DNA from: Escherichia coli | Lineage (GTDB): Bacteria; Pseudomonadota; Gammaproteobacteria; Enterobacterales; Enterobacteriaceae | Length of the DNA stretch: 64,000 bases | Assembly (NCBI RefSeq): GCF_030384885.1 | Contig: NZ_CP128613.1 | Direction: 5' to 3' (one strand) | Shown: one piece after another, positions 38,318-55,804 of the stretch | Layout: the number at the start of each line of letters is the position of its first letter | Position numbering within the stretch: position 1 is the first letter of the stretch | Made by a program: the position numbers and the translations under genes | Notes under the pieces: generated by a model | What the model was told of the DNA's origin: nothing | Database searches by the model: none | Seen by the model: only the letters and a program-made list of their open reading frames with translations

Positions 38318-39052
38318 TTATGCTGCGACAACAATCCCCTTTTTGGTAAATGTAGAGCGTAGTCGGCGGGCGAACGCCAGTGCGTGCTCGCCGTCGCCAT
38401 GCAGACAGACAGTCTGCACCGTGACCGTCGCCCATTCGCCGGTGATACTTTTGACTCTGCCGTGTTGCACCATCTCCAGCGTCTGCGCCAGCGCCTGTTC
38501 TTCGTTTTCAATCAACGCGCCAGGCTGACTTCGCGGTACCAGTGAGCCGTCAGCCTGATATCCGCGATCGGCAAATACTTCCTCGCGCGTTGTCAGGCCA
38601 TATTGCTTGCCTGCACGAATCAGCTCGCTTCCCGCCAGCCCGACGAGAATCAATGCCGGATCGCAAGCGTAAACTGCTCTGGCAATGGCGTCTGCCAGTT
38701 GTGCGTCTTTCGCCGCCTGGTTGTATAACATGCCGTGCGGTTTGACATGACGCATCACGCCGCCTTGCGCGCGAGCAATAGCGGCCAGCGCACCAATTTG
38801 ATACAGCGTTTGGGCGTAAACGGTTTCCGGCGGCAATTGCATGGCGCTACGGCCAAAATGTTCCCTGTCCGGAAAGCTCGGGTGAGCGCCAATGGCGACA
38901 CCATTTTGTATGGCATCACGCACGCAAGCCTGCATGGTTTGTGCATCGCCTGCATGAAATCCACAGGCAATATTGGCTGAGGAAACCAGCGTTAATAGCT
39001 CTGCGTCGCTGACACAGCCTTCGCCCAGATCGGCGTTCAGGTCAATTTTCAT
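38318..39052 (-). CDS. pxpA: 5-Oxoprolinase subunit A (LamB/YcsF family)
   Basis: 244-aa [39 protein letters not shown]... Confidence 0.93.
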
Positions 39053-39974
39053 TGTGCAGCCGCCACGCTAATTGTTCGAAATAACGTTGCTGATCTTGCC
39101 GTGCTTTCAGTGCCTCTTCCAGTGAACACTGGACAAAATGAATCGGCTGACCGAGCGGAATTTGCGCCAGATGGTACATATCAGCCTCAATGATACAGGC
39201 AATACGCGGATAACCACCGGTGGTCTGTGCGTCGTTCATCAATACAATCGGCTGCCCGTTATGCGGCACCTGCACCACGCCCGGCAACAAACCATGAGAT
39301 AACAGTTCGCGATCGGTGGTGCGTTTTAAGATTTGCCCCTGTAGGCGATAGCCCATCCGGTTACTTTGCGGGCTAAGCTGCCAGGGCGAACGCCAGAATG
39401 CATCCTGCGAGGCGCGATCGAACTCATGATATTCCGGCCCCGGCAAGGCGCGAATGCGGTTGCCCCACAGCAGCTGTTTAACGCCCTGCGCTTCCATAAA
39501 ATCACGCTTCGATTTACCCATCGGGAGTCGGTCACCATCCTTCAGTAAACGGCCTTCCAGCCCACCAATCCCCACTTTGAGATCGGTACTGCATGACCCC
39601 ATTACCGGCGGAACATCAATACCACCCGCGACCGCCAGATAACTGCGCATCCCGTGCTGCGGGCGTTTAAGCGTTAAACGCTGGCCTGCTTTCATCGGCA
39701 ATCGCCAGCCAGTCCAGACGGCATTATCATCCAGCCGCGCTTCGCAACCTGCCCCCGTCAGGGCAAACCAACCATCAGTTTCGAACTCTACCGTTAACTG
39801 ACCGAGCGTTATCTCCAGCGCGGGGGCATTGGCGTCATTACCCACCAGCAGGTTAGCAATGCGTAACGCAGGCATATCCAGTGCGCCGCAGTGGCTGATA
39901 CCCGACTGGCGAAAACCGTGACGACCGCCATCCTGCACAGTAGTATACATGCCCGCACGAATAATCTTCAGCAT
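39042..39974 (-). CDS. pxpC: 5-Oxoprolinase subunit C (allophanate hydrolase subunit 2-like)
   Basis: 310-aa ORF overlapping pxpA and pxpB in the ybgIJKL operon order. Confidence 0.9.
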
Positions 39975-40624
39975 ACTCCCTCCTTCTGCGGTACAAAGCG
40001 CACGCTGTCTCCCGGACGTAATAAGATGGGTTCGTCACGCGCCGGATCAAACAGGCTGAGTGAGGTATGACCAATCAACTGCCAGCCGCCCGGCGTTGCC
40101 AGCGGATAAACACCGGTCTGCGGCCCGCCGATCCCGACAGAACCTGCCGGAACGAGCAAGCGCGGTTCAGCGCGCCGTGGCGTGTGTAGTTGTTCCGGCA
40201 AACTCCCGAGATACGGGAAGCCCGGTTGAAAACCTAAAAACCAGACCACGTATTCCACAGAGGAGTGCAATTCAACAACCTGTTTTTCGCTCAATCCACA
40301 ATGCGCCGCGACCACCGCCAAATCCGGTCCGCCTGCGCCACCGTAAACCACCGGAATTTCAATAAAACGAGACTCCGGCTCCAGCGCCTCACTCTCCTCC
40401 CACCAGCGTTGCAAACGCTCTATGGCATCCAGCGCCAGCGACTCAGGATTACGTAAAATCACCGTGATATTGTTCATGCCGGGAATGGCTTCAACCACAT
40501 TCGGCATATCCACCAGACGCTGCGCCAGTCGCCGGATACGTTTCTGGCTAGCCAGCGTCACCGGCGGTTCCAGCTCCAGCACTACCGCCGTTTCACCTAT
40601 CAGATAACAACGCGCTCGTTGCAC
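39968..40624 (-). CDS. pxpB: 5-Oxoprolinase subunit B (allophanate hydrolase subunit 1-like)
   Basis: 218-aa ORF; operon position. Confidence 0.9.
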
Positions 40625-40646
40625 TTTCGATCCCTCTGATTATTCG

Positions 40647-41390
40647 TTATGCAGGATTAGGAATATCAATAAAGGTCACATCAAGATCGGTATTTTCATT
40701 CAGCCACTCGCTCAATGCGCGAATACCACCGCGTTCAGTGGCATGGTGACCCGCAGCATAAAAATGCAATCCCTGCTCGCGGGCTGAATGAATGGTCTGT
40801 TCAGAAACTTCGCCAGTAATAAAAGCATCCACGCCAAAACGCGCGGCGCTATCGATAAAACTCTGCCCGCCGCCCGTGCACCAGGCGACGCGCTGAACCA
40901 CCTCAGGTCCGGTATCGCCACACCATAACGGCTTACGTCCCAGACGCGCTTCAATCCAGGAAGCCAGCTCCAGTCCCGGCACAGGCATGGTCAGTTCGCC
41001 CCACGGCACCAACGGCTCAATTTCGCCCATGACCGTGATCCCCAGTATCGCCGCCAGCTGTGCGTTATTGCCCAGCTCTGGATGTGCGTCAAGCGGCAAA
41101 TGCCAGCCATACAGGTTGATATCATTCACCAGCAACGTTTTTAAACGGTTACGCTTCATGCCGCGAATTACCGGGGATTCGCCTTTCCAGAAGTAGCCAT
41201 GATGCACAATGACCGCATCCGCGCCCAGACGCACCGCTTCATCGAGCAGCGCCTGGCTGGCGGTGACACCGGTAACAATTTTTTGCACCGTCTCTTTGCC
41301 TTCTACCTGCAAACCATTCGGCGCGTAATCACTTATGGCCGCGCTGTTCAGTTTCTCGTTAATCAGTTGTTCCAGTTCGGTGTTTTTCAT
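40647..41390 (-). CDS. ybgI: GTP cyclohydrolase 1 type 2 / NIF3-family metal-binding protein
   Basis: 247-aa ORF MKNTELEQLINEKLNSAAISDYAPNGLQVEG... Confidence 0.92.
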   Translation of the reverse strand: MKNTELEQLINEKLNSAAISDYAPNGLQVEGKETVQKIVTGVTASQALLDEAVRLGADAVIVHHGYFWKGESPVIRGMKRNRLKTLLVNDINLYGWHLPLDAHPELGNNAQLAAILGITVMGEIEPLVPWGELTMPVPGLELASWIEARLGRKPLWCGDTGPEVVQRVAWCTGGGQSFIDSAARFGVDAFITGEVSEQTIHSAREQGLHFYAAGHHATERGGIRALSEWLNENTDLDVTFIDIPNPA

Positions 41391-41477
41391 CTTCGCGCCT
41401 TCCGTATTCTGATAGCTATACCGTTAACATAGCGTTACCTCGCCTGTTCGTCGATAGCCAATCTTTTGACATATTAA

Positions 41478-43142
<1,665 letters not shown>

Positions 43143-43157
43143 CAGGCCAGCACCGAT

Positions 43158-43290
43158 GCCTGATAAGACGCTTAATGCGTCTTATCAGGCCTGGATGTCC
43201 CTGCAATATATTGAATTTGCACTATTTGCCAGGCCGGAGAAGGTGTTCACGCAGTATCCGGCATCCGGGCAAGATTGCCTGACGCGTCTG
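43158..43290. repeat. REP/BIME cluster between dtpD and phr
   Basis: Palindromes gcctgataagacgcttaatgcgtcttatcaggcc and ccggcatccgggc / gcctgacgcgtc. Confidence 0.8.
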
Positions 43291-44709
43291 TTATTTCCCC
43301 TTCCTCGCCGCCTCATACGCTGCCAACGTTCGTACTCTCGCTTCTTTGTGATCGACTATCGGTTGCGGATAATCCAGCGTCACACCTGATTTATCTGCCC
43401 ACTTCCACGGTTCATGCACCGCTTTCCCTGGTACATCGCGCAGCTCCGGTAACCATCGGCGGATAAACTCACCTTCGCGATCAAATTTCTCGCCCTGGGT
43501 TGTCGGGTTAAAAATACGAAAATACGGCGCAGCATCGGTTCCGGTGGAGGCCGCCCATTGCCAGCCACCGTTATTGGCTGCCAAATCACCATCAATCAGC
43601 TGCGACATGAAATATCGCTCGCCTTCGCGCCAGTCGATCAATAAATCTTTCACCAGAAAACTGGCTGTAATCATCCGTAGCCGGTTATGCATCCAGCCAC
43701 TGCTATTAAGCTGACGCATGGCGGCATCAACAATTGGGTATCCCGTTTTGCCTTCCTGCCAGGCCTTTAAATGGGCGGGATTGCTTTGCCACTGTACGCG
43801 ATCGGTCCAGGCAATAAAGGGGCGATGCTTACACAGTGACGGGTGATACGTCATCAAATGACGGTAGAACTCGCGCCAGATCAGCTCATTAAGCCAGACG
43901 CTACCAGCCCCGCCATCCAGCGCTTGCGGCTGTTCCGCCAACAGGCGATGCAGACACTGGCGAGGCGATAACCCGCCCGTTGCCAGGCTGGCGGACAAAC
44001 GACTGGTGCCTTCCACTGCCGGAAAATCTCGTTGTTGCTCATACTCTCCGGCACCGTTCTGGCAAAACTGGCGTAATTGCGCAATCGCCGCTTTTTCTTC
44101 CACCGGGAAATGCGCAGTATCGAAAGACTGACGAGGATAATTCAGCGTAATGGATGGCGCGGGCTCTATCGATCCGCTACTACGAACTTTTGGTGCAGCG
44201 ACGCACTCCGGCCCCCCTTCTCGCAGCCGTTTCAGCCAGGCGTTTTTAAATGGCGTAAAGACTTTGTACATCTCATGATTGCCAGTCATCACCGCCCCCG
44301 GCGGCAGGATCACGCTGTCATCAAATCCTTCACACACCACGTTACGCAGCGTTCTCTCAACCTGCACATCCCGAGCCCGCTCATTCACCTCATACTGATA
44401 GTTATAAAACAGATGGGTAACACGATTTTCCGCGCACACCTGTTTAACTATTTCGACGCTGGCGGCAAAGTCATCCACTTCATGAAACAGCAAAGGAATG
44501 CCTTTTTCCGCCAGCGCGATTTGTAGCCCGTTCAGTTGTGCATTGATAAATTCAGCCTGACGCGGCGACATATTATGCGCCGCCCACTGGCGTGGTGTAG
44601 CGATATACAACGCCAGCACGCGTGCAGACGAATAGCGGCAAGCGGCCGCCAGCGCGAGATTATCATGCAGACGTAAATCCTGGCGAAACCAGACCAGATG
44701 GGTAGTCAT
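43291..44709 (-). CDS. phr: Deoxyribodipyrimidine photolyase
   Basis: 472-aa ORF MTTHLVWFRQDLRLHDNLALAAACR... Confidence 0.97.
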   Translation of the reverse strand: MTTHLVWFRQDLRLHDNLALAAACRYSSARVLALYIATPRQWAAHNMSPRQAEFINAQLNGLQIALAEKGIPLLFHEVDDFAASVEIVKQVCAENRVTHLFYNYQYEVNERARDVQVERTLRNVVCEGFDDSVILPPGAVMTGNHEMYKVFTPFKNAWLKRLREGGPECVAAPKVRSSGSIEPAPSITLNYPRQSFDTAHFPVEEKAAIAQLRQFCQNGAGEYEQQRDFPAVEGTSRLSASLATGGLSPRQCLHRLLAEQPQALDGGAGSVWLNELIWREFYRHLMTYHPSLCKHRPFIAWTDRVQWQSNPAHLKAWQEGKTGYPIVDAAMRQLNSSGWMHNRLRMITASFLVKDLLIDWREGERYFMSQLIDGDLAANNGGWQWAASTGTDAAPYFRIFNPTTQGEKFDREGEFIRRWLPELRDVPGKAVHEPWKWADKSGVTLDYPQPIVDHKEARVRTLAAYEAARKGK

Positions 44710-45215
44710 AAAACTCCTGCATGGCGCAAGTTAATCACCCGCGGCCAAAGTTCGAAATAACGCTGCTCTGAAAGCCAGGCGTCAGGATAAAGCGCCATAT
44801 AGTGTTTGATACGCATCAGCGGCGCAAGAAGCGGTTGCTCGCCACGGCGATAACTGTCGATAAGCGCCGCCAGCTGCTGGCGTTCTGTGGAATCAATATG
44901 TGGGCGAAAATATCCCTGAACGTGCATCAAAACATTGGTGTGGTCACGTCGGTTGGCGGGGTGAGAAAGCAAAACAATTACGCGTTGGCGGTACTGGTTG
45001 TAATAGTCATCCAGATTTTGCCACTGGTGAATATCAGCCACAAACGGGCCAAGTTTGCGGTATTCCGGCTGGGAATGAGCCAGAAAGACGAGTTTATAGC
45101 GGCTGTGATAATCGTTGAGCGCCCCGCGCGTTAAGCCTCGCTCTTTAAGACGGTGTAACTCATGCAAAGCAAAAATGCGGATAAGGGTGCTGTCATCAAA
45201 AAGTTGTTGATTCAT
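44706..45215 (-). CDS. ybgA: DUF1722-family protein YbgA
   Basis: 169-aa ORF overlapping the phr start (ATGA), as in the K-12 ybgA-phr operon. Confidence 0.9.
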   Translation of the reverse strand: MNQQLFDDSTLIRIFALHELHRLKERGLTRGALNDYHSRYKLVFLAHSQPEYRKLGPFVADIHQWQNLDDYYNQYRQRVIVLLSHPANRRDHTNVLMHVQGYFRPHIDSTERQQLAALIDSYRRGEQPLLAPLMRIKHYMALYPDAWLSEQRYFELWPRVINLRHAGVL

Positions 45216-45412
45216 TACTACTCCTGGGCGGTTTACAGGAGTAAGTGTAGACGGCGGTACTGAAAAAACGAAACGAATAAATGATAACAGTAAAAAAATT
45301 CAATTATTCATAATAAATTTCATGGTGGCAAGAAATAGTTTCTTTTCTTCATCGCTCATGGCAGCAACGTTTAACATGTTGTCATCAAAATTATTGATGA
45401 TATTTTTTAATT

Positions 45413-45748
45413 TCAGTAACTGCAAAGGAGAAAAATAGTCACTCCGATGAGATTACTCAATACCAGCAATAGCTCCCCATCATATAAATAGCCCACCATA
45501 AGATTAATCTCTATCATCTCAATTGCTTTTTGTACAGCAAGCGCCGGTAAGATATTCTGACGAAGCATTTTGGCAATATCATTTTCATCCAGTTCATCGG
45601 GTGTTTTATCTAATAAAGAATTATACCAGTTTATTAAACCACTTTTGAAAGCGAACGAATCATATTGCAGGTGATAAATCTGTTTTAGGGTTTCTTTATT
45701 TTTCAATTTATAGTGCCTTTGTTTGCTATAATTTTTCTGAAATAACAT
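45413..45748 (-). CDS. Hypothetical small protein (111 aa); possible immunity-type partner of the upstream gene
   Basis: AT-rich ORF whose start overlaps the stop of the upstream 155/186-aa ORF by 1 nt (translational coupling). Confidence 0.45.
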   Translation of the reverse strand: MLFQKNYSKQRHYKLKNKETLKQIYHLQYDSFAFKSGLINWYNSLLDKTPDELDENDIAKMLRQNILPALAVQKAIEMIEINLMVGYLYDGELLLVLSNLIGVTIFLLCSY

Positions 45749-46215
45749 CAGCGAGTTTGCTCAGGTGCAGGGATGACCGAAATTGTCATGTATTTTTTCA
45801 GTCTGGCTTCTCGTTTCACACCTTTCGGATCTGAACCAAAAGGAAGCGTCAAGCATGGTGAGTCAACGGTTTGGATTGTCCAGAGAGAATCACCAATGAA
45901 TCTGAAATTGATGCTATCCGCTGTAACGGATAATCCCTCAAAACTTCCCGTCGCATACTCATTACCCAAACGTACGGTCTCTTTAACTCCATCGTTAACA
46001 TCGATAAGGACAATTGTCAGTGATTCCTCAAAAATAACGTCATCCGTCAGAAAAAGGATATAACGCTGGTCATTAACCTGAATTGCCGCTTCCAGTATTT
46101 GCCCTGGTACAATAATACCTGTGTTATTGCCATTAAGCACAACGTCAGACTGAGCCTGAGATAAATCAGTCGCTTTGTGAACCTTGACCAACGATATCGA
46201 ATTAACCTGTTGCAT
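45748..46215 (-). CDS. Hypothetical protein (about 155 aa from the ATG at 46215; the track ORF extends to a GTG at 46308)
   Basis: ORF from the track; start ambiguous among GTG 46308, ATG 46245 and ATG 46215, the last lying 2 nt after the stop of the small glycine-zipper ORF. Confidence 0.45.
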   Translation of the reverse strand: MQQVNSISLVKVHKATDLSQAQSDVVLNGNNTGIIVPGQILEAAIQVNDQRYILFLTDDVIFEESLTIVLIDVNDGVKETVRLGNEYATGSFEGLSVTADSINFRFIGDSLWTIQTVDSPCLTLPFGSDPKGVKREARLKKYMTISVIPAPEQTR

Positions 46216-46217
46216 AA

Positions 46218-46358
46218 TCAATTCCACAAGCGCCCCATTTCCCATGCGGCAAGTGCACCGCCGACAAAGCCGCCAATAAGTACGCAAACAGGTGCTCCTG
46301 GACCACACATCAATCCGGTCAACGCACCGCCTGCGACAGCACCGGCAATAATATTCAT
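46218..46358 (-). CDS. Small glycine-zipper hydrophobic peptide (46 aa), candidate small membrane protein or toxin-like peptide
   Basis: Hand translation gives MNIIAGAVAGGALTGLMCGPGAPVCVLIGGFVGGALAAWEMGRLWN with repeated GxxxG spacing; below the track length cutoff; no strong Shine-Dalgarno seen. Confidence 0.35.
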   Translation of the reverse strand: MNIIAGAVAGGALTGLMCGPGAPVCVLIGGFVGGALAAWEMGRLWN

Positions 46359-46541
46359 CCGGGTACGACTGCCAGTGGTTTTAACAGATTTACGCTCACC
46401 GTTACGTATCCTGCCACCACTCAGGTTGCAGACGCGGCAGTCACAGCCTTGACGGTGTTGAAACTAAAGTTCAGGTGATAGTCTGATGTTCATAGTTTGA
46501 GCATTATCCCCTGACAGAATCAAATCAAGCAGTGTCAATGA

Positions 46542-46799
46542 TCACGTGTATATATCATTTAAAGCATTATCAAGCCAATCTTCCATGTTTTTAATTTTAG
46601 CCCGCGCATATAAATCATTCATAACATCCTCATAACTCTGTCCATCATTGACCATACAATTAGCTGTATGAGGCAGAACATGTATAAAATCAGACAATAT
46701 AAAACAAGCCTTTGAATTTCCAGAGTTAGCTGCAATTCTGATATCAATCAATCCTCTGGCAATCAATTTAAGAATAACATCTTGCATTTTAATTTCCAT
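46542..46799 (-). CDS. Hypothetical small protein (85 aa)
   Basis: AT-rich ORF in the same orientation as its neighbours; no recognisable motif. Confidence 0.4.
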   Translation of the reverse strand: MEIKMQDVILKLIARGLIDIRIAANSGNSKACFILSDFIHVLPHTANCMVNDGQSYEDVMNDLYARAKIKNMEDWLDNALNDIYT

Positions 46800-46881
46800 A
46801 TCATCCAGTTAAATTTCAGTAGTAAATCGTCTATCAAAAAAAGATGAAATTAACATTCATAAATTTATTACAATATGAAAA

Positions 46882-47235
46882 TCAAAAATATACATCATCA
46901 GCTTCTACCGAAAACTCCATGGCTCCTAAGGCACCTAAATCAATACTAAATATAGTATCACTTTCCTTAGCACTCCCAACATAGATAAAATAGCCTAAAT
47001 CTCCGTCTTGACCTATCAAAAAATAGTCAGGTTCCACTTGTTGAATATCATATGTTTCATTTCTTTCAATAAGATCAGAATAGTTATATAAATATAATGT
47101 TTCGTGCTTCTTATTAGTTATTTCATAGGTCTCACTATCTTTAATTTCTTCTATCAAAAAACGTTTATACACTGGAGGAAACTTGATTGACATGTCAAAT
47201 TCAATTTTATTTATATATTCTATAATTTTATTCAT
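46882..47235 (-). CDS. SUKH/SMI1-KNR4-like putative immunity protein (117 aa)
   Basis: Motif LIGQDGDLGYFIYV resembles the conserved G-x-D-G-x-G-x-Y core of SUKH immunity proteins; short, acidic, AT-rich; sits where K-12 has rhs-associated genes. Confidence 0.5.
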   Translation of the reverse strand: MNKIIEYINKIEFDMSIKFPPVYKRFLIEEIKDSETYEITNKKHETLYLYNYSDLIERNETYDIQQVEPDYFLIGQDGDLGYFIYVGSAKESDTIFSIDLGALGAMEFSVEADDVYF

Positions 47236-47464
47236 GTTAAGAATACCTGAAAGATTATTTATTGATTATCTTGATGAATATATCTTCACTTTTTATTTTC
47301 ATTTACTCATCGCGGAAATACACATTGCCTTGTAGACAAGCGCTAATAATACGTTATGAACCTGACTTCCGCCAGACAATCAATCTATGAATTCATTACG
47401 CCGTAGTGTTTTAGAAAGACACTTTCTGACCAGATGGTGAACCATATACTACATCGCGCATTAT

Positions 47465-47500
47465 AAAAAAACCGCCAGCGTTTCCACTAGCGGTTTTCAA
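47465..47500. terminator. Hairpin flanked by A-run and T-run; probable bidirectional terminator after ybfA
   Basis: Sequence aaaaaaaccgccagcgtttccactagcggttttcaa. Confidence 0.5.
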
Positions 47501-47519
47501 TGTTTTCAAAACTCAGCAA

Positions 47520-47726
47520 TCAGTAAAAATCACCGGTTGCCTTTTCGGCCTGATCCATCCACACCGGCTTATCGCTGGTTTTCGACCAGACGCGATGCAG
47601 GTAGCTGTAAAAGCGGGCGCGGTCTTTCCAGAAAAGCATGAAAGGCAGCGCCAAAACGCCCGCTGCAACCGCATAAGTACGGCGTAAAAAGATAAGCCAT
47701 GCAGGATATTCTCTGTAGAGTTCCAT
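47520..47726 (-). CDS. ybfA: Small membrane protein YbfA (DUF2517)
   Basis: 68-aa [71 protein letters not shown]. Confidence 0.9.
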
Positions 47727-47935
47727 ACTTTTCTCCCCCTTTTGTATCTACCCGGTGAATGGCACCGGAAAAATGAATTTGTTTATCTGATGAAAATAGT
47801 ACCGCCTTTTGTGTAATTTTACTACTCATCCGACCACTTATTTTTGCTTATTGATGGTTTATTTACATTCATCGTGTAATTAAGTTACATGAAAGTTAAA
47901 TTAATACTAAACATTAGTTAAATCATGGCTTTTGC

Positions 47936-47964
47936 CATTTTTATACTTTTTTTACACCCCACCC
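47936..47964 (+). promoter_or_regulatory. KdpE response-regulator binding site in the kdpFABC promoter
   Basis: Sequence tttttatactttttttacaccccacccg contains the TTTATA...TTTACA direct half-sites that I recall from the KdpE-DNA literature; located about 75 bp upstream of kdpF. Confidence 0.6.
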
Positions 47965-48038
47965 GCAGATTTTTGCGAAATCTTTGCAGCCAGAATTCTA
48001 CCCTTCCGGTATCACTTTTAGGCCACTGGAGGTGCACT

Positions 48039-48128
48039 GTGAGTGCAGGCGTGATAGCCGGCGTGTTGCTGGTGTTTTTATTACTGGGTTATCTGGTTTA
48101 TGCCCTGATCAATGCGGAGGCGTTCTGA
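48039..48128 (+). CDS. kdpF: K+-transporting ATPase small subunit KdpF (29 aa)
   Basis: GTG start after a GGAGG Shine-Dalgarno; translation [29 protein letters not shown]; stop overlaps the kdpA start (TGATG). Confidence 0.9.
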
Positions 48129-49801
48129 TGGCTGCGCAAGGGTTCTTACTGATTGCCACGTTTTTACTGGTGTTAATGGTGCTGGCGCGCCCTTTGGGCA
48201 GTGGGCTGGCGCGGCTGATTAATGATATTCCTCTTCCTGGTACGACGGGCGTTGAGCGCGTACTTTTTCGCGCACTTGGCGTGTCTGACCGTGAGATGAA
48301 CTGGAAGCAGTATCTCTGTGCCATTCTCGGCCTGAACATGCTGGGGCTGGCAGTGCTGTTTTTTATGTTGCTCGGTCAGCACTATCTGCCGCTTAATCCA
48401 CAGCAGTTGCCAGGGCTGTCGTGGGATCTGGCGCTGAATACCGCCGTCAGCTTTGGCACGAATACCAACTGGCAATCTTACAGCGGTGAAACCACGTTGA
48501 GCTATTTCAGCCAGATGGCGGGCTTAACGGTGCAAAACTTTCTTTCTGCCGCCAGCGGGATTGCGGTGATTTTTGCCCTCATTCGTGCATTTACCCGCCA
48601 GAGCATGAGCACACTCGGGAATGCCTGGGTCGATCTGCTACGCATCACGTTATGGGTGCTAGTCCCTGTGGCGTTGTTGATCGCACTGTTTTTTATTCAA
48701 CAAGGTGCGCTGCAAAACTTTCTGCCCTATCAGGCGGTGAATACCGTTGAAGGAGCGCAACAGCTGTTACCCATGGGGCCTGTAGCTTCTCAGGAAGCGA
48801 TCAAGATGCTCGGTACTAACGGCGGTGGCTTCTTTAATGCCAACTCGTCGCATCCGTTTGAAAACCCAACCGCACTGACCAACTTCGTGCAGATGCTGGC
48901 GATTTTCTTGATCCCAACAGCGCTGTGCTTTGCCTTTGGTGAAGTGGCAGGCGATCGCCGCCAGGGGCGCATGTTGCTGTGGGCGATGTCAGTGATTTTT
49001 GTCATCTGCGTAGGCGTGGTGATGTGGGCAGAAGTTCAGGGTAATCCTCATCTGCTGGCGCTGGGTGCGGACAGCAGCATCAATATGGAAGGTAAAGAGA
49101 GCCGTTTCGGCGTGCTGGTCAGTAGCCTGTTTGCGGTCGTGACTACAGCGGCTTCCTGTGGCGCGGTGATTGCGATGCATGATTCGTTTACCGCTCTCGG
49201 CGGCATGGTGCCGATGTGGCTGATGCAAATTGGTGAAGTGGTGTTCGGCGGTGTCGGTTCTGGTCTTTACGGCATGATGCTGTTTGTCCTGCTGGCGGTG
49301 TTTATTGCTGGGCTGATGATTGGTCGTACGCCGGAATATCTGGGTAAAAAAATCGACGTACGCGAGATGAAACTGACCGCACTGGCGATTCTGGTCACTC
49401 CAACGCTGGTACTGATGGGCGCAGCACTGGCGATGATGACCGACGCCGGACGTAGCGCCATGCTCAACCCTGGCCCGCATGGTTTTAGCGAAGTGCTGTA
49501 CGCCGTGTCATCCGCCGCTAACAACAACGGCAGCGCCTTTGCCGGATTAAGCGCCAACTCTCCGTTCTGGAACTGTTTACTGGCGTTCTGCATGTTTGTT
49601 GGTCGCTTCGGGGTGATTATCCCGGTAATGGCAATTGCCGGTTCGCTGGTGAGTAAAAAGAGCCAACCCGCCAGCTCCGGCACGCTGCCAACGCACGGCC
49701 CGCTGTTTGTTGGCCTGTTAATCGGCACCGTGTTGCTGGTTGGCGCACTGACCTTTATCCCTGCCCTGGCGCTTGGTCCGGTGGCGGAATATCTCTCCTG
49801 A
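48127..49801 (+). CDS. kdpA: K+-transporting ATPase subunit A
   Basis: 557-aa ORF from [30 protein letters not shown]... Confidence 0.97.
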
Positions 49802-49823
49802 TGATATTGAGTGAGCACTGAAT

Positions 49824-51872
49824 ATGAGTCGTAAACAACTGGCGCTATTCGAACCAACACTTGTCGTTCAGGCGCTGAAAGAAGCGGTGAAAAAATTAAA
49901 CCCGCAGGCGCAATGGCGCAATCCGGTGATGTTTATCGTCTGGATCGGCAGTCTGCTGACCACCTGTATTAGCATCGCGATGGCAAGCGGTGCGATGCCT
50001 GGCAATGCGCTGTTTAGCGCGGCCATTAGCGGCTGGCTGTGGGTCACCGTACTGTTCGCTAATTTCGCCGAGGCGCTGGCAGAAGGCCGCAGTAAAGCGC
50101 AGGCCAACAGTCTGAAAGGGGTGAAAAAAACTGCCTTTGCCCGCAAGCTGCGTGAGCCGAAATATGGCGCTGCGGCGGACAAAGTTCCTGCCGATCAACT
50201 GCGTAAAGGCGATATCGTGCTGGTAGAAGCTGGCGATATTATCCCCTGCGATGGTGAAGTCATTGAAGGGGGCGCATCGGTCGATGAAAGCGCCATCACC
50301 GGGGAATCGGCACCGGTGATCCGTGAATCCGGCGGCGATTTTGCCTCCGTCACCGGCGGCACGCGTATTCTTTCTGACTGGCTGGTGATTGAGTGCAGCG
50401 TTAACCCCGGTGAGACATTTCTGGATCGGATGATCGCGATGGTGGAAGGCGCGCAGCGACGTAAAACGCCGAACGAGATTGCCCTGACCATTCTGCTGAT
50501 TGCCCTGACTATCGTCTTTTTACTGGCAACCGCCACGCTGTGGCCGTTTTCCGCGTGGGGCGGTAATGCAGTCAGTGTAACGGTACTGGTGGCGCTGCTG
50601 GTCTGTCTGATTCCAACCACCATCGGTGGCCTGTTGTCAGCGATCGGCGTCGCCGGGATGAGTCGGATGCTGGGCGCGAATGTGATTGCCACCAGCGGGC
50701 GTGCAGTTGAAGCGGCGGGCGACGTGGACGTCCTGCTGCTGGATAAAACCGGTACCATCACCCTCGGTAACCGTCAGGCATCAGAGTTTATCCCTGCGCA
50801 GGGCGTAGAGGAAAAAACGCTGGCCGACGCAGCGCAACTGGCTTCGCTGGCCGACGAAACGCCGGAAGGCCGCAGTATTGTGATCCTCGCCAAGCAGCGT
50901 TTTAACCTGCGCGAGCGCGATGTGCAGTCGCTTCACGCCACTTTTGTACCGTTTACTGCGCAAAGTCGAATGAGCGGGATCAATATCGATAACCGTATGA
51001 TCCGTAAAGGTTCTGTCGATGCCATTCGCCGCCATGTTGAGGCTAACGGTGGTCACTTCCCTGCCGATATCGATCAAAAAGTCGATCAGGTTGCGCGTCA
51101 GGGAGCCACGCCGCTGGTGGTGGTGGAAGGTTCTCGTGTGCTGGGCGTTATTGCGCTGAAAGATATCGTCAAAGGCGGTATTAAAGAGCGCTTCGCCCAA
51201 CTGCGCAAAATGGGCATTAAAACGGTGATGATTACTGGCGATAACCGTCTGACTGCCGCCGCCATTGCCGCGGAAGCGGGCGTCGATGATTTCCTCGCCG
51301 AAGCGACACCGGAGGCCAAGCTGGCGTTAATTCGTCAGTATCAGGCGGAAGGCCGTTTGGTGGCGATGACCGGCGACGGCACCAACGATGCTCCGGCGCT
51401 GGCGCAGGCAGATGTCGCGGTGGCGATGAACTCTGGTACTCAGGCGGCGAAAGAAGCGGGCAATATGGTGGATCTCGACTCTAACCCGACCAAGTTGATC
51501 GAGGTGGTGCATATTGGCAAACAGATGCTGATGACCCGTGGCTCGCTGACCACCTTCAGCATTGCCAACGATGTGGCGAAATACTTCGCCATTATTCCGG
51601 CGGCGTTCGCGGCAACATATCCGCAGTTAAATGCGCTGAACATCATGCGCCTGCATTCACCCGACTCCGCCATCCTCAGTGCGGTGATTTTCAACGCCTT
51701 GATTATCGTCTTTTTAATTCCCCTGGCGTTAAAAGGCGTGAGTTATAAACCGCTTACCGCTTCTGCCATGTTGCGCCGTAACTTATGGATTTACGGTCTG
51801 GGTGGGCTGCTGGTGCCGTTTATTGGTATCAAAGTCATTGATTTACTGCTGACCGTTTGCGGTCTGGTGTGA
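49824..51872 (+). CDS. kdpB: K+-transporting P-type ATPase subunit B
   Basis: 682-aa ORF with P-type ATPase motifs DKTGTIT and [12 protein letters not shown]. Confidence 0.98.
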
Positions 51873-51880
51873 GGTTTACC

Positions 51881-52453
51881 ATGCGTGGATTACGTCCGGC
51901 ATTATCAACATTTCTCTTTTTGTTACTGATTACTGGCGGTGTTTACCCGCTGCTGACCACCGCGCTGGGGCAATGGTGGTTTCCCTGGCAGGCCAATGGT
52001 TCGTTGATTCGCGAAGGTGATACGGTGCGCGGCTCGGCATTAATCGGGCAGAATTTTACCGGCAACGGCTATTTTCATGGTCGCCCGTCGGCAACGGCAG
52101 AAATGCCCTATAATCCACAGGCTTCTGGCGGGAGCAATCTGGCGATCAGTAACCCTGAGCTGGATAAACTAATAGCCGCACGCGTTGCTGCATTACGGGC
52201 CGCTAACCCGGATGCCAGCGCGAACGTTCCGGTTGAACTGGTGACGGCGTCGGCAAGCGGGCTGGACAATAACATCACCCCGCAAGCGGCGGCCTGGCAG
52301 ATCCCACGCGTGGCGAAAGCGCGTAATCTCAGCGTTGAACAGCTCACGCAGCTGATCGCAAAATATAGCCAACAACCGCTGGTGAAATATATCGGCCAGC
52401 CGGTCGTCAACATTGTCGAACTCAATCTGGCGCTGGATAAGCTTGATGAATAA
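51881..52453 (+). CDS. kdpC: K+-transporting ATPase subunit C
   Basis: [42 protein letters not shown]...; start at the ATG preceded by GAGG. Confidence 0.95.
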
Positions 52454-55130
52454 CGAACCCTTACGTCCCGACCCCGATCGTCTGCTGGAACAAACTGCCG
52501 CGCCGCATCGGGGGAAGCTGAAAGTATTTTTCGGTGCCTGTGCAGGCGTCGGGAAGACCTGGGCGATGCTGGCAGAAGCCCAGCGACTGCGGGCGCAAGG
52601 GCTGGATATTGTGGTTGGCGTGGTTGAAACTCACGGACGGAAAGATACCGCCGCAATGCTGGAAGGGCTGGCTGTTCTGCCGCTAAAACGCCAGGCGTAC
52701 CGTGGGCGGCACATCAGCGAGTTTGATCTCGATGCCGCCCTCGCCCGCCGTCCGGCGCTGATCTTAATGGACGAACTGGCGCACAGTAATGCGCCAGGCT
52801 CTCGTCATCCTAAACGCTGGCAGGACATTGAAGAGCTGCTGGAAGCGGGCATTGATGTTTTCACTACCGTCAACGTTCAGCATCTGGAAAGCCTGAACGA
52901 TGTGGTCAGCGGCGTCACCGGAATTCAGGTGCGGGAAACCGTGCCCGATCCCTTTTTTGATGCTGCCGACGACGTAGTGCTGGTGGACTTGCCCCCAGAC
53001 GATCTGCGTCAACGGCTGAAAGAAGGCAAAGTCTATATTGCCGGGCAGGCGGAGCGCGCCATTGAACATTTTTTCCGCAAAGGCAATCTGATCGCCCTGC
53101 GCGAACTGGCACTGCGCCGTACTGCCGATCGCGTAGATGAGCAAATGCGCGCCTGGCGGGGGCATCCTGGCGAAGAGAAAGTCTGGCACACGCGCGACGC
53201 GATTCTTTTATGTATTGGGCATAACACCGGCAGCGAAAAACTGGTCCGCGCGGCGGCACGGTTGGCATCGCGCCTTGGGAGCGTCTGGCACGCGGTGTAT
53301 GTTGAAACCCCTGCCCTGCATCGCTTACCGGAGAAAAAACGTCGGGCAATTCTCAGCGCCTTACGTCTGGCGCAGGAGCTGGGCGCGGAGACAGCAACAC
53401 TTTCTGATCCGGCGGAAGAAAAAGCCGTAGTGCATTATGCCCGTGAACATAATCTCGGCAAGATTATTCTCGGTCGCCCGGCCTCGCGCCGCTGGTGGCG
53501 TCGGGAAACGTTTGCTGACCGACTGGCGCGCATCGCCCCCGATCTCGATCAGGTGCTGGTCGCGCTTGATGAACCACCCGCCCGCCCGCTTAATAACGCG
53601 CCGGATAGCCGCTCTTTTAAAGACAAGTGGCGGGTACAGATTCAGGGGTGCGTGGTTGCCGCCGCGTTATGTGCCGTTATCACCTTAATTGCCATGCAGT
53701 GGCTGATGGCGTTTGATGCCGCCAACCTGGTGATGCTGTATCTGCTTGGCGTGGTGGTGGTGGCGCTATTTTATGGACGCTGGCCTTCGGTGCTTGCTAC
53801 CGTCATTAATGTGGTGAGTTTCGATCTCTTTTTTATCGCCCCACGCGGCACGCTCGCCGTCTCTGATGTGCAATATCTGCTGACCTTCGCGGTGATGTTA
53901 ACCGTCGGGCTGGTGATCGGGAACCTTACTGCTGGCGTGCGTTATCAGGCGCGGGTAGCCCGTTACCGCGAACAACGCACACGGCACTTATATGAAATGT
54001 CGAAAGCTCTGGCTGTGGGCCGCAGTCCGCAGGACATCGCCGCCACCAGCGAACAATTTATTGCTTCTACGTTTCATGCCCGCAGCCAGGTATTGTTACC
54101 CGATGACAACGGTAAATTGCAGCCGTTAACACATCCGCAAGGAATGACGCCGTGGGACGATGCCATCGCGCAGTGGAGTTTTGATAAAGGCCTGCCTGCG
54201 GGCGCGGGCACCGATACGTTACCCGGTGTGCCATACCAGATTTTGCCGTTAAAAAGCGGTGAGAAAACCTACGGGCTGGTGGTGGTGGAACCGGGGAATC
54301 TGCGCCAGTTGATGATCCCGGAACAGCAACGCCTGCTGGAGACGTTCACGCTGTTAGTTGCCAATGCCCTGGAACGCCTGGCGCTGACCGCCAGCGAAGA
54401 ACAGGCGCGGATGGCAAGCGAACGAGAACAGATCCGCAACGCCCTGCTGGCGGCGCTTTCGCATGATTTACGCACGCCGCTTACGGTGCTGTTCGGTCAG
54501 GCAGAAATCTTAACGCTCGATCTGGCAAGCGAAGGATCGCCTCACGCCCGCCAGGCCAGCGAGATTCGTCAGCATGTGCTGAACACGACCCGACTGGTGA
54601 ATAATCTACTGGATATGGCGCGAATTCAGTCCGGCGGCTTTAATTTGAAGAAAGAGTGGTTAACGCTGGAAGAAGTGGTCGGTAGCGCGCTACAAATGCT
54701 GGAACCGGGATTATCATCGCCCATCAACCTGTCTTTGCCAGAACCGCTGACCTTAATCCACGTTGATGGGCCACTCTTTGAACGGGTGCTGATTAATCTG
54801 CTGGAGAACGCGGTGAAATATGCGGGTGCGCAGGCCGAAATTGGTATCGATGCCCACGTTGAGGGCGAAAATCTACAACTGGATGTCTGGGATAACGGCC
54901 CCGGTCTTCCGCCAGGTCAGGAGCAGACGATATTCGATAAGTTTGCTCGTGGAAATAAAGAGTCGGCGGTGCCGGGCGTTGGGCTTGGGCTGGCAATTTG
55001 TCGGGCGATTGTGGATGTACACGACGGCACCATTACCGCCTTCAACCGACCGCAAGGTGGTGCCTGTTTTCGTGTTACACTTCCCCAGCAAACTGCCCCT
55101 GAACTTGAAGAATTTCATGAGGATATGTGA
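52446..55130 (+). CDS. kdpD: Sensor histidine kinase KdpD
   Basis: 894-aa protein from [42 protein letters not shown]; H-box [13 protein letters not shown]; overlaps the kdpC end. Confidence 0.97.
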
Positions 55131-55804
55131 CAAACGTTCTGATTGTTGAAGATGAACAGGCTATTCGTCGCTTTCTGCGCACGGCGCTGGAGGGCGATGG
55201 GATGCGCGTCTTTGAGGCCGAAACGCTGCAACGCGGCTTGCTGGAAGCGGCAACCCGTAAGCCCGATTTGATTATTCTCGATCTCGGCCTGCCAGACGGT
55301 GATGGGATTGAGTTTATCCGCGACCTGCGCCAGTGGAGCGCGGTGCCAGTAATTGTGCTTTCCGCCCGCAGCGAAGAGAGCGACAAAATCGCCGCGCTGG
55401 ATGCTGGAGCGGATGATTATCTGAGTAAGCCATTTGGTATTGGCGAATTACAGGCCCGTCTGCGCGTTGCTTTACGTCGCCACTCCGCCACCGCCGCTCC
55501 CGATCCGCTGGTGAAATTTTCTGATGTTACCGTCGATTTAGCCGCCCGCGTAATCCACCGCGGCGAGGAAGAGGTGCATCTCACCCCGATTGAATTCCGC
55601 CTGCTGGCGGTGCTGCTCAACAATGCCGGAAAAGTGCTCACCCAGCGCCAGCTTCTCAACCAGGTGTGGGGACCAAACGCGGTCGAACACAGCCACTATT
55701 TGCGTATATATATGGGGCATCTGCGACAAAAACTGGAGCAAGATCCCGCCCGCCCTCGCCATTTTATTACTGAAACCGGTATTGGGTATCGGTTTATGCC
55801 ATGA
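55127..55804 (+). CDS. kdpE: Response regulator KdpE (OmpR family)
   Basis: GTG start overlapping the kdpD stop; [37 protein letters not shown]... Confidence 0.97.
   Translation: MTNVLIVEDEQAIRRFLRTALEGDGMRVFEAETLQRGLLEAATRKPDLIILDLGLPDGDGIEFIRDLRQWSAVPVIVLSARSEESDKIAALDAGADDYLSKPFGIGELQARLRVALRRHSATAAPDPLVKFSDVTVDLAARVIHRGEEEVHLTPIEFRLLAVLLNNAGKVLTQRQLLNQVWGPNAVEHSHYLRIYMGHLRQKLEQDPARPRHFITETGIGYRFMP

Follow-up and report, generated by a model that had tools for sequence, protein, structure and literature searches.

The locus between ybgA and ybfA

We analyzed a 64,000-nucleotide stretch of DNA from Escherichia coli (contig NZ_CP128613.1 of assembly GCF_030384885.1; henceforth the window), with emphasis on the short segment between the conserved genes ybgA and ybfA, the site at which strain K-12 carries the RhsC element. 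The window runs in the reverse orientation relative to K-12 and presents the gene order dtpD, phrB, ybgA, the segment in question (henceforth the islet), ybfA and kdpFAB. The islet holds five open reading frames (ORFs), here named A to E in their direction of transcription, the remains of an insertion sequence (IS) and a sixth, out-of-frame ORF (F). The features are listed below by window coordinates, with the evidence for each in brackets:

44706-45215, minus strand: ybgA, conserved flank (ORF list, annotation, K-12 comparison)
45254-47462, no strand: the variable islet as a whole, in place of the 9.56-kb K-12 RhsC element (K-12 alignment breakpoints)
45300-45425, minus strand: F, 41 aa, the C-terminal third of the CdiI_3 gene, out of frame with E (aligns to the intact 135-aa C-terminus)
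45413-45748, minus strand: E, CdiI_3 immunity gene, 111 aa, cut by a 1-bp deletion (Pfam PF18616, allele alignment)
45748-46215, minus strand: D, intact 155-aa soluble all-beta protein, putative immunity protein (homologues, gene linkage, AlphaFold 2 model)
46218-46358, minus strand: C, 46-aa chimeric ORF, IS630 transposase start plus toxin tail (homologues, DNA junctions)
46351-46552, minus strand: IS630-family remnant with the left terminus, transposase codons 1-8, an internal deletion and residues ~178-205 (blastn, alignment)
46542-46799, minus strand: B, 85-aa ORF of unknown family, Escherichia-restricted, 3' end replaced by IS630 (allele alignment)
46882-47235, minus strand: A, intact 117-aa SUKH-1 (SMI1-KNR4) protein, putative orphan immunity protein (Pfam, PDB match)
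47520-47726, minus strand: ybfA, conserved flank (ORF list, annotation, K-12 comparison)

Homology to K-12 ends at 45253 and restarts at 47463, with 2,209 bp in between; the last stretch common to the two genomes is the terminator hairpin of ybfA at about 47463-47500. The corresponding interval of K-12 is occupied by rhsC, ybfB, ybfO, ybfC, ybfQ, ybfL and ybfD. Neither blastn nor tblastn revealed any similarity between the 2,209-bp islet and the 9.56-kb K-12 element, and the islet contains no Rhs core, YD repeats, DPxGL-type junction, core end or rhs-CT remnant, its longest ORF being 186 aa. RHS features are likewise absent from the annotated records of the islet carriers that were checked. 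No terminal repeats, integrase or att-like sequence were found flanking the islet, and there is no adjacent recombinase.

A preliminary description of this DNA, made from its letters alone, had reported five same-strand ORFs of 117, 85, 46, 155 and 111 aa at a site lacking the Rhs core gene of K-12, and both the sizes and the absence agree with our comparison. The translational coupling it noted is also present: the stop of D and the start of E overlap in the sequence TGATG at 45748, and the stop of C lies 2 nt from the start of D. Its statement that the genes are low in GC holds for A, B and E (0.25-0.34) but not for the C-D block (0.43-0.50), and because of this difference the islet is compositionally mosaic. 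Its descriptions of three ORFs need correction: the 111-aa ORF is frameshifted, the 46-aa ORF is a chimera of an IS630 start and a toxin tail, and the 85-aa ORF has lost its 3' end.

Two known immunity families and an Escherichia-restricted gene

ORF A matches the Pfam family SMI1_KNR4 (PF09346; i-E 1.6e-4 over residues 6-95 of 117) and the PDB entry 3D5P of the Smi1/Knr4 family (E 1.6e-5), with lesser Pfam matches to SUKH_6 (0.0087) and SUKH_5 (0.015). These profile searches agree with the earlier assignment to the SUKH/SMI1-KNR4 proteins, which had been made from the motif GQDGDLGYF within the same 117-aa ORF. Allelic copies are labeled ‘SMI1/KNR4 family protein’ by the Prokaryotic Genome Annotation Pipeline (PGAP), and no transmembrane segment is predicted in the protein. 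Zhang et al. in 2011 reportedly defined the SUKH superfamily as immunity proteins of polymorphic toxins. In the islet, A belongs to an array with a CdiI_3 gene and a toxin stump with its partner, and a complete toxin is not adjacent.

ORF E matches the Pfam family CdiI_3 (PF18616; i-E 1.4e-17, model positions 2-79 of 95), and its intact 135-aa allele matches chain C, ‘Immunity protein CdiI’, of PDB entry 5J5V (E 1.7e-5), which we take to be the CdiA-CT/CdiI/CysK complex of uropathogenic E. coli 536. Set against the allele found in E. coli of the sequence type 69 (ST69) kind, the gene has its lesion at 45444-45445, where the window reads GG and the intact gene GGG, and the frame of E departs from the 135-aa protein past about residue 87 of the intact allele. 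The translation of F, ...LKNIINNFDDNMLNVAAMSDEEKKLFLATMKFIMNN, matches the C-terminus of that intact protein. The frameshift is common to the window and the 100%-identical strain 2013C-4282. Since the gene is intact at 135 aa in both of the other E. coli islet carriers checked (2/2), and at 135-149 aa in three of four loci of Escherichia fergusonii, the frameshift is a recent lesion. PGAP places the start of E at a TTG (45706); the ATG start of the intact allele is a TTG in the window, and the alternative upstream ATG overlaps the stop of D (45748). With this start, E gains N-terminal residues (FQKNYSKQ) whose homologue is the tail (LNQKNHSK) in which B originally ended. The gene upstream of E is D in the window and B in the shorter form of the islet described below, and neither cdiA nor cdiB is present at the locus.

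ORF B gave no matches in Pfam, NCBIfam, PADLOC, PHROGs or PDB, and outside E. coli and E. fergusonii the only homologue detected is a 50%-identical ORF, equally long, on a short contig from a metagenome and in another gene neighborhood. That ORF overlaps by 4 nt a cysteine-rich ORF bearing CPCCGYPTL, presumably a CPCC-type motif, and is not followed by a CdiI_3 gene. B thus looks like a small cassette of its own and not like a toxin partner of E; the partner idea was further rejected on the lack of any PDB similarity, including to the toxin of 5J5V. The intact allele of B is 90-94 aa long and ends in ...NDIELNQKNHSK; in the window its final nine codons (ELNQKNHSK) are swapped for two (YT) that are read from an IS630 end.

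An IS630 remnant and the origin of ORF C

About 200 bp between B and C match plasmid IS630-family elements in blastn. The identity to the copy in Pantoea dispersa is 87% over 84 nt and 83% over 77 nt: window positions 46552-46469 correspond to the left end of the element and its first eight transposase codons (MNIRLSPE) and, past an internal deletion, 46427-46351 correspond to transposase residues ~178-205 (KLSGGWIRRGERKPVKTIGSRTRMNII). Only ~200 of ~1,100 bp are left and the transposase is not intact. The outer end of the element (TATACACGTGATCATTG; cf. the termini of the Pantoea copy) meets a TA in the 3' end of B, with the terminus TATAC(A/C)CGTGATCATTG abutting that TA, and it is this junction that replaced the last nine codons of B by two. 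No IS end marks the far edge of the block, directly behind the stop of D, where ~8 bp present in the ST69-type sequence are absent.

The DNA homology to toxin genes of Enterobacter and Cronobacter opens at 46350, one base past the end of the IS630 homology at 46351. The ATG of C and the residues ‘MNII’ come from the transposase, whereas 46350-46218 hold the final ~42 codons of the toxin domain (~225 residues), its glycine-zipper hairpin. Because the two homologies abut in this way, C is an in-frame IS630/toxin-tail chimera and not a gene in its own right, a by-product of IS-mediated deletion or truncation. It is hydrophobic and has five GxxxG motifs; it retains under a fifth of the toxin domain, namely the last of three hydrophobic helices whole and about half of the preceding one. 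In an identical public genome, PGAP labels the equivalent of window positions 46305-46424 ‘IS630 family transposase, partial’, and by the same alignments this label is correct. Two other identities for C were rejected: a class II microcin or double-glycine bacteriocin, as its homologues have no leader peptide and the Bacteriocin_IIc match is only at E 7.8; and the tip of an Rhs or CdiA giant, as the domain occurs in proteins of 230-530 aa and the lone 1,360-aa match has it at the N-terminus.

A widespread putative toxin domain and its partner D

When the extended frame of C served as the query, a word-indexed search returned only proteins of 46-141 aa, from Enterobacter, Cronobacter, Pantoea, Kosakonia and E. 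fergusonii. Cronobacter dublinensis has a complete version (L013:8276-8998), a 240-aa toxin-type gene that is preceded by a ribosome-binding site and has a homologue of D as its next gene. An exhaustive HMMER search (E up to 0.001) with a 241-aa Kosakonia reconstruction as the query recovered 538 cluster representatives, mostly 230-530 aa in length, in which the ~225-residue domain is C-terminal (in nearly all among the 150 matches listed). The N-terminal Pfam domains seen among 35 long members include PAAR (E 1.7e-17), Phage_Mu_F, LysM, PG_binding_1 and DUF6861, and no RHS-repeat Pfam match is listed for these members. Polymorphic toxins are characterized by a conserved C-terminal domain behind interchangeable trafficking domains (PMC3482391), and because this family displays a single C-terminal domain in such a setting, its sequences indicate that it has the modular architecture of a polymorphic toxin. 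One member also adjoins another toxin/immunity pair (Tox-HNH-EHHH).

An AlphaFold model of the 240-aa Cronobacter protein (predicted local distance difference test, pLDDT, 84.5) is all-helical with three long helices at the end. The last segment of the protein is hydrophobic (Kyte-Doolittle score of at least 1.6 in windows from residues 206-218) and contains four GxxxG motifs. The family has no sequence match in Pfam, NCBIfam, PADLOC or PDB, and all its NCBI names are ‘hypothetical protein’. Several identities were rejected: the colicin pore domain (PF01024), for which there is neither a Pfam nor a fold match; Tox-WTIP of Zhang 2012, whose motifs RxxR and Wx[ST]IP are at odds with the family consensus; the pair Ssp6/Sip6, as the immunity types differ; a phage origin, for which PHROGs gives just a weak tail-lysin match in the glycine-rich part (E 1.4e-5); and a known defense system, as PADLOC has no family for A, B, D, E or the 240-aa toxin at E up to 1.

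D comprises 155 aa from its ATG, or 186 aa from an upstream GTG. Its homologues fall into more than 120 clusters, none named and without a Pfam match, and into 142 AFDB50 clusters of the AlphaFold database, nearly all of them an ‘Uncharacterized protein’; the family also lacks NCBIfam, PADLOC and PDB sequence matches. Every toxin locus inspected has a D homologue as its next gene (directly after the toxin gene or stump in loci L005, L007-L009, L013-L015, L022, L025, L029 and L031 of our set), across seven distinct contexts and down to 35-45% identity. The gene after a PAAR-fused member is 39% identical to D. A profile of D finds the gene 3' of two distant toxins outside the profile set (E 7e-24 and 2.4e-44), whereas the control, an unrelated immunity gene of a neighboring HNH toxin on the same contig, scored nothing. 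The AlphaFold 2 model of D is all-beta (pLDDT 85; predicted TM-score 0.83). D has no convincing transmembrane segment, a single borderline hydrophobic window falling in a modeled beta-strand, and no N-terminal signal peptide was seen by eye; it is predicted to be soluble and cytoplasmic. The combined family spreads across the Proteobacteria, with 538 toxin clusters and at least 142 D-like AlphaFold database clusters. We found no description of it in the libraries or literature searched, nor any literature on the accessions or motifs, though this limited search is not proof of novelty.

The loci of other genera display varied states of the module. In Kosakonia sacchari (L005:7541-8426) the toxin gene is a frameshifted pseudogene of two overlapping frames (162 and 149 aa); an intact D homologue still comes next, and an integrase as well. 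In Enterobacter (L007, L008 and L009) the stump and D lie in integrase-linked islands near tmRNA/SmpB, adjoining DarT/DarG, a Cap4 nuclease with AAA_23, and McrBC; an IS3-family transposase directly precedes the stump in L007. Truncation of the toxin by insertion sequences thus appears to have happened more than once. In Cronobacter malonaticus (L010-L012, 9001-9471) a lone D homologue sits in a housekeeping neighborhood with no called toxin gene or stump upstream, and may be a fully orphaned copy. Locus L029 (775-6884) has a 407-aa toxin-family member that adjoins a divergent cluster of a 1,087-aa protein, an AAA ATPase and a 486-aa protein, with a reverse transcriptase gene after the D homologue; the cluster could be a contractile-injection system (of the extracellular contractile injection system or Photorhabdus virulence cassette kind) or another delivery system.

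Distribution and history of the islet

The occupancy of the site was surveyed in 5,426 complete E. coli genomes:

3,682/5,426 (68%): K-12-type ybfA-rhs junction
~150/5,426: shorter islet of A, B and E only, 91-94% identical, without the equivalent of window positions 45741-46550
13/5,426: whole islet as in the window

The gene content of the site thus varies by strain. The same five-ORF islet is found at the same site in E. fergusonii, so that the ORFs, conserved beyond the window in 13 E. coli genomes and a second species, are more than products of chance; the many homologue clusters of D speak for the same. The protein WP_001188052 was present in every carrier checked, and both A and D are intact, with sequences that are the same or nearly so from carrier to carrier.

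The islet has 99.5% identity to its E. fergusonii counterpart. Over about 45400-48200 the window and E. fergusonii agree at 99.0-99.75%, as against 90-97% on either side. In one E. fergusonii genome (L017), identity is 96.8% over the 12.5 kb of phrB-ybgA-islet-ybfA-kdp (43300-55800) and a mean of only 85% over 38357-43190, which includes dtpD. Because the islet core is so much closer than its flanks, the sequences indicate a recent exchange of the islet between E. coli and E. fergusonii through recombination in the flanks. From the carrier frequencies, transfer from E. fergusonii to a few E. coli lineages was the more likely direction. The shorter A-B-E islet is probably the older form, into which an IS630-mediated event would have brought, or in which it would have truncated, the toxin-D module.

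Two E. coli variants of the site carry additional DNA. The ST69-type locus (L003:2941-3181) is longer by 240 bp in the interval from ybfA to the SUKH gene, and the window lacks this DNA at the equivalent point (~47465); the added stretch includes ...CACCCCAGTCACTTACTTATGTAAGCTCCTGGGGATT..., which we take to be an ERIC/IRU intergenic repeat, and has no coding potential. The possibility that it was a toxin remnant upstream of A was therefore rejected, and none of the intergenic stretches of the islet holds a toxin remnant upstream of A, B or E. In strain WP7-S17-ESBL-01 (L002:4223-5203), which has the A-B-E type, an IS5 is inserted in the SUKH gene, leaving an annotated remnant of 98 aa, a further case of insertion-sequence activity in this islet.

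A probable heterogeneous polyimmunity islet

The reading that we favor, with a probability of about 0.78, is that the segment is a small heterogeneous polyimmunity islet, without a working toxin, in a ybfA-ybgA hotspot that usually holds rhs. Members of the unrelated SUKH-1, CdiI_3 and D families stand in tandem and co-oriented on the minus strand, the toxin is represented by a 42-codon tail only, and the site is variable among strains. The islet is partly decayed here: A and D are intact, B is tail-swapped and E is broken. The intact products of A, D and possibly B would bind and neutralize toxins injected by competitors, and the islet would be kept for such protection. The matching toxin of D would be a helical protein with a C-terminal glycine-zipper hairpin, probably membrane-inserting and presumably pore-forming, which in some bacteria is delivered as a PAAR fusion through a type VI secretion system (T6SS). 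D would bind this incoming toxin and stop its insertion into the inner membrane.

A more specific proposal concerns D and its partner domain. We tentatively suggest, at somewhat less than even odds, that D and the ~225-residue helical glycine-zipper domain form an undescribed polymorphic toxin/immunity family, in which the soluble all-beta D neutralizes a predicted membrane-inserting toxin, and that the intact D here is a working orphan immunity protein against attackers of the Cronobacter or Enterobacter type.

Several points weigh against these interpretations. The SUKH match of A is weak at 22.7 bits, though consistent across Pfam and PDB; to call B an immunity gene is a guess whose sole ground is its position; and a promoter scan of the islet gave a signal no better than shuffled sequence. 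With two of its five genes damaged, the islet may be largely a relic. As for D, the characterized immunity proteins against membrane-targeting T6SS toxins, Sip6 among them, are themselves membrane proteins (bioRxiv 10.1101/676247), so that a soluble protein is an unusual pairing for a pore-former. D could either act on the soluble N-terminal helices of the toxin or serve otherwise, for example as a chaperone or regulator.

The preliminary description had proposed orphan immunity genes retained after loss of the toxin. This is literally true of the C-D pair and fits the SUKH and CdiI_3 genes, which profile searches place in established immunity families; it does not extend to a lost toxin upstream of A, B or E, where no remnant is seen. 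Its alternative, an undescribed small toxin/immunity set, is unlikely to be active here, with the 46-aa ORF having the start of an IS630 transposase and under a fifth of the toxin domain.

The strongest competitor is that the islet is a functionless relic, AT-rich DNA that was acquired horizontally and is now decaying, with no gene of present use. The broken E, the truncated B and the stump C of this strain are in line with it, as are the rarity of the islet in E. coli (13 genomes) and the lack of a promoter signal above chance. However, A and D remain intact and nearly invariant across carriers, E is unbroken in the other E. coli carriers checked, as it is in most loci of E. fergusonii, and a larger set of E. 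coli still has the A-B-E form, 91-94% identical, which implies that the frames were kept open for long. We give this alternative about a quarter of the weight of a polyimmunity islet, enough for it to be taken seriously.

Less probable still is that the toxin-like protein and D constitute an intracellular toxin-antitoxin or abortive-infection pair for phage defense rather than an interbacterial weapon. The predicted cytoplasmic location of D would suit such a role; moreover, the full-length pair in Cronobacter is solitary, secretion genes being absent within 9 kb of it, and the Enterobacter modules lie in integrase-linked islands beside DarT/DarG, Cap4-nuclease and McrBC genes. Against this, neither protein matches PADLOC, the fusions to PAAR, MuF, LysM and PG-binding domains are hallmarks of exported polymorphic toxins, and one member is the neighbor of the Tox-HNH-EHHH pair.

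It is quite improbable that C and D are an active miniature toxin/antidote pair, in which the 46-aa glycine-zipper C is a membrane-active toxin or addiction peptide neutralized by D. C does have an ATG, a hydrophobic sequence with five GxxxG motifs and an end only 2 nt before D; many genomes retain a 46-90-residue tail plus D; and the pN/pS of the tail is ~0.12 between the window copy and independently truncated Enterobacter copies. Yet the ATG and first four codons of C are IS630 transposase sequence, an accident of the deletion, and only the last of the three hydrophobic helices is whole, with about half of the one before it. The points of truncation vary by lineage, as random decay from the 5' side predicts, and for the low pN/pS, which can predate truncation, the simplest explanation is selection acting at that earlier stage.

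Least likely of all, to the point of being barely tenable, is a degraded RhsC element that lost its core and toxin tips: the islet does occupy the site of rhsC, and Rhs loci, as Poole et al. in 2011 are said to have described, carry orphan toxin-tip/immunity pairs, but the islet resembles the K-12 element neither in nucleotide nor in protein sequence, shows nothing of a core, YD repeat or DPxGL-type junction and has no toxin tips in its intergenic stretches, while E belongs to a family of contact-dependent inhibition (CDI) immunity proteins and the toxin remnant to a family with PAAR, MuF and LysM N-termini and no RHS-repeat Pfam match listed among its 35 long members. The rhs-associated island of the preliminary description finds no support, with no Rhs sequence being present and the families pointing to CDI (CdiI_3) and to PAAR/MuF/LysM-linked toxins.

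Implications and comparison with known systems

The locus illustrates that the rhsC hotspot is able to hold a toxin-free immunity array in place of an Rhs weapon; it shows too that arrays of this sort pass from one Escherichia species to another and are reshaped by insertion sequences. It offers a worked example of how an orphan immunity gene and a toxin stump originate, through an IS630 hit followed by deletion. It further flags a widespread unnamed toxin/partner family that is large, is linked to several delivery modes, has an atypical soluble partner and is easily testable in E. coli. In terms of annotation, three ‘hypothetical proteins’ and one partial IS630 transposase can now be described. 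Current understanding is not overturned: the locus is of an ordinary kind, and orphan immunity arrays and toxin stumps are already well known (PMC3482391, PMC12247911).

The closest precedent is provided by the heterogeneous polyimmunity loci of Zhang, de Souza, Anantharaman, Iyer and Aravind (2012; PMC3482391). Like them, the islet consists of tandem same-strand unrelated immunity genes (SUKH, CdiI-type and others) without a complete toxin, and its gene content is variable among strains of one species. In contrast to them, it is very small, with three to four candidate immunity genes, two of which are damaged, and has no adjacent recombinase; the families of B and D are absent from their catalogue as well as from Pfam. 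The K-12 RhsC element shares with the islet its chromosomal position between ybfA and ybgA, and both are competition-related accessory DNA; however, the islet is 2.2 kb long as against 9.6 kb, has no sequence in common with it and lacks an Rhs core, a toxin and an H-repeat transposase.

Orphan cdiA-CT/cdiI and rhs-CT/rhsI modules were reportedly described by Poole et al. in 2011. Like these, the C-D segment is a 5'-truncated toxin fragment followed by an intact partner gene; in contrast, it is not downstream of cdiA or rhs, its truncation was by IS630, and it has no VENN or Rhs-core homology for recombination into a full-length gene. The CdiI of uropathogenic E. coli 536 (PDB 5J5V), the immunity protein to a CysK-activated tRNase CdiA-CT, is of the same CdiI_3 family as the intact allele of E by both profile and direct sequence match. 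E is nonetheless a distant relative (E 1.7e-5) with no adjacent cdiBAI, and the window copy is frameshifted. Finally, the parent of C is comparable to Ssp6/Sip6, Tse4 and VasX (Mariano et al., bioRxiv 10.1101/676247): it is likewise small and helical with hydrophobic C-terminal helices, sometimes PAAR-fused, and accompanied by an overlapping or adjacent partner gene. If our proposal for D is true, its soluble, cytoplasmic, all-beta mode of immunity would set this family apart from the membrane-embedded immunity proteins known for the pore-formers of the T6SS.

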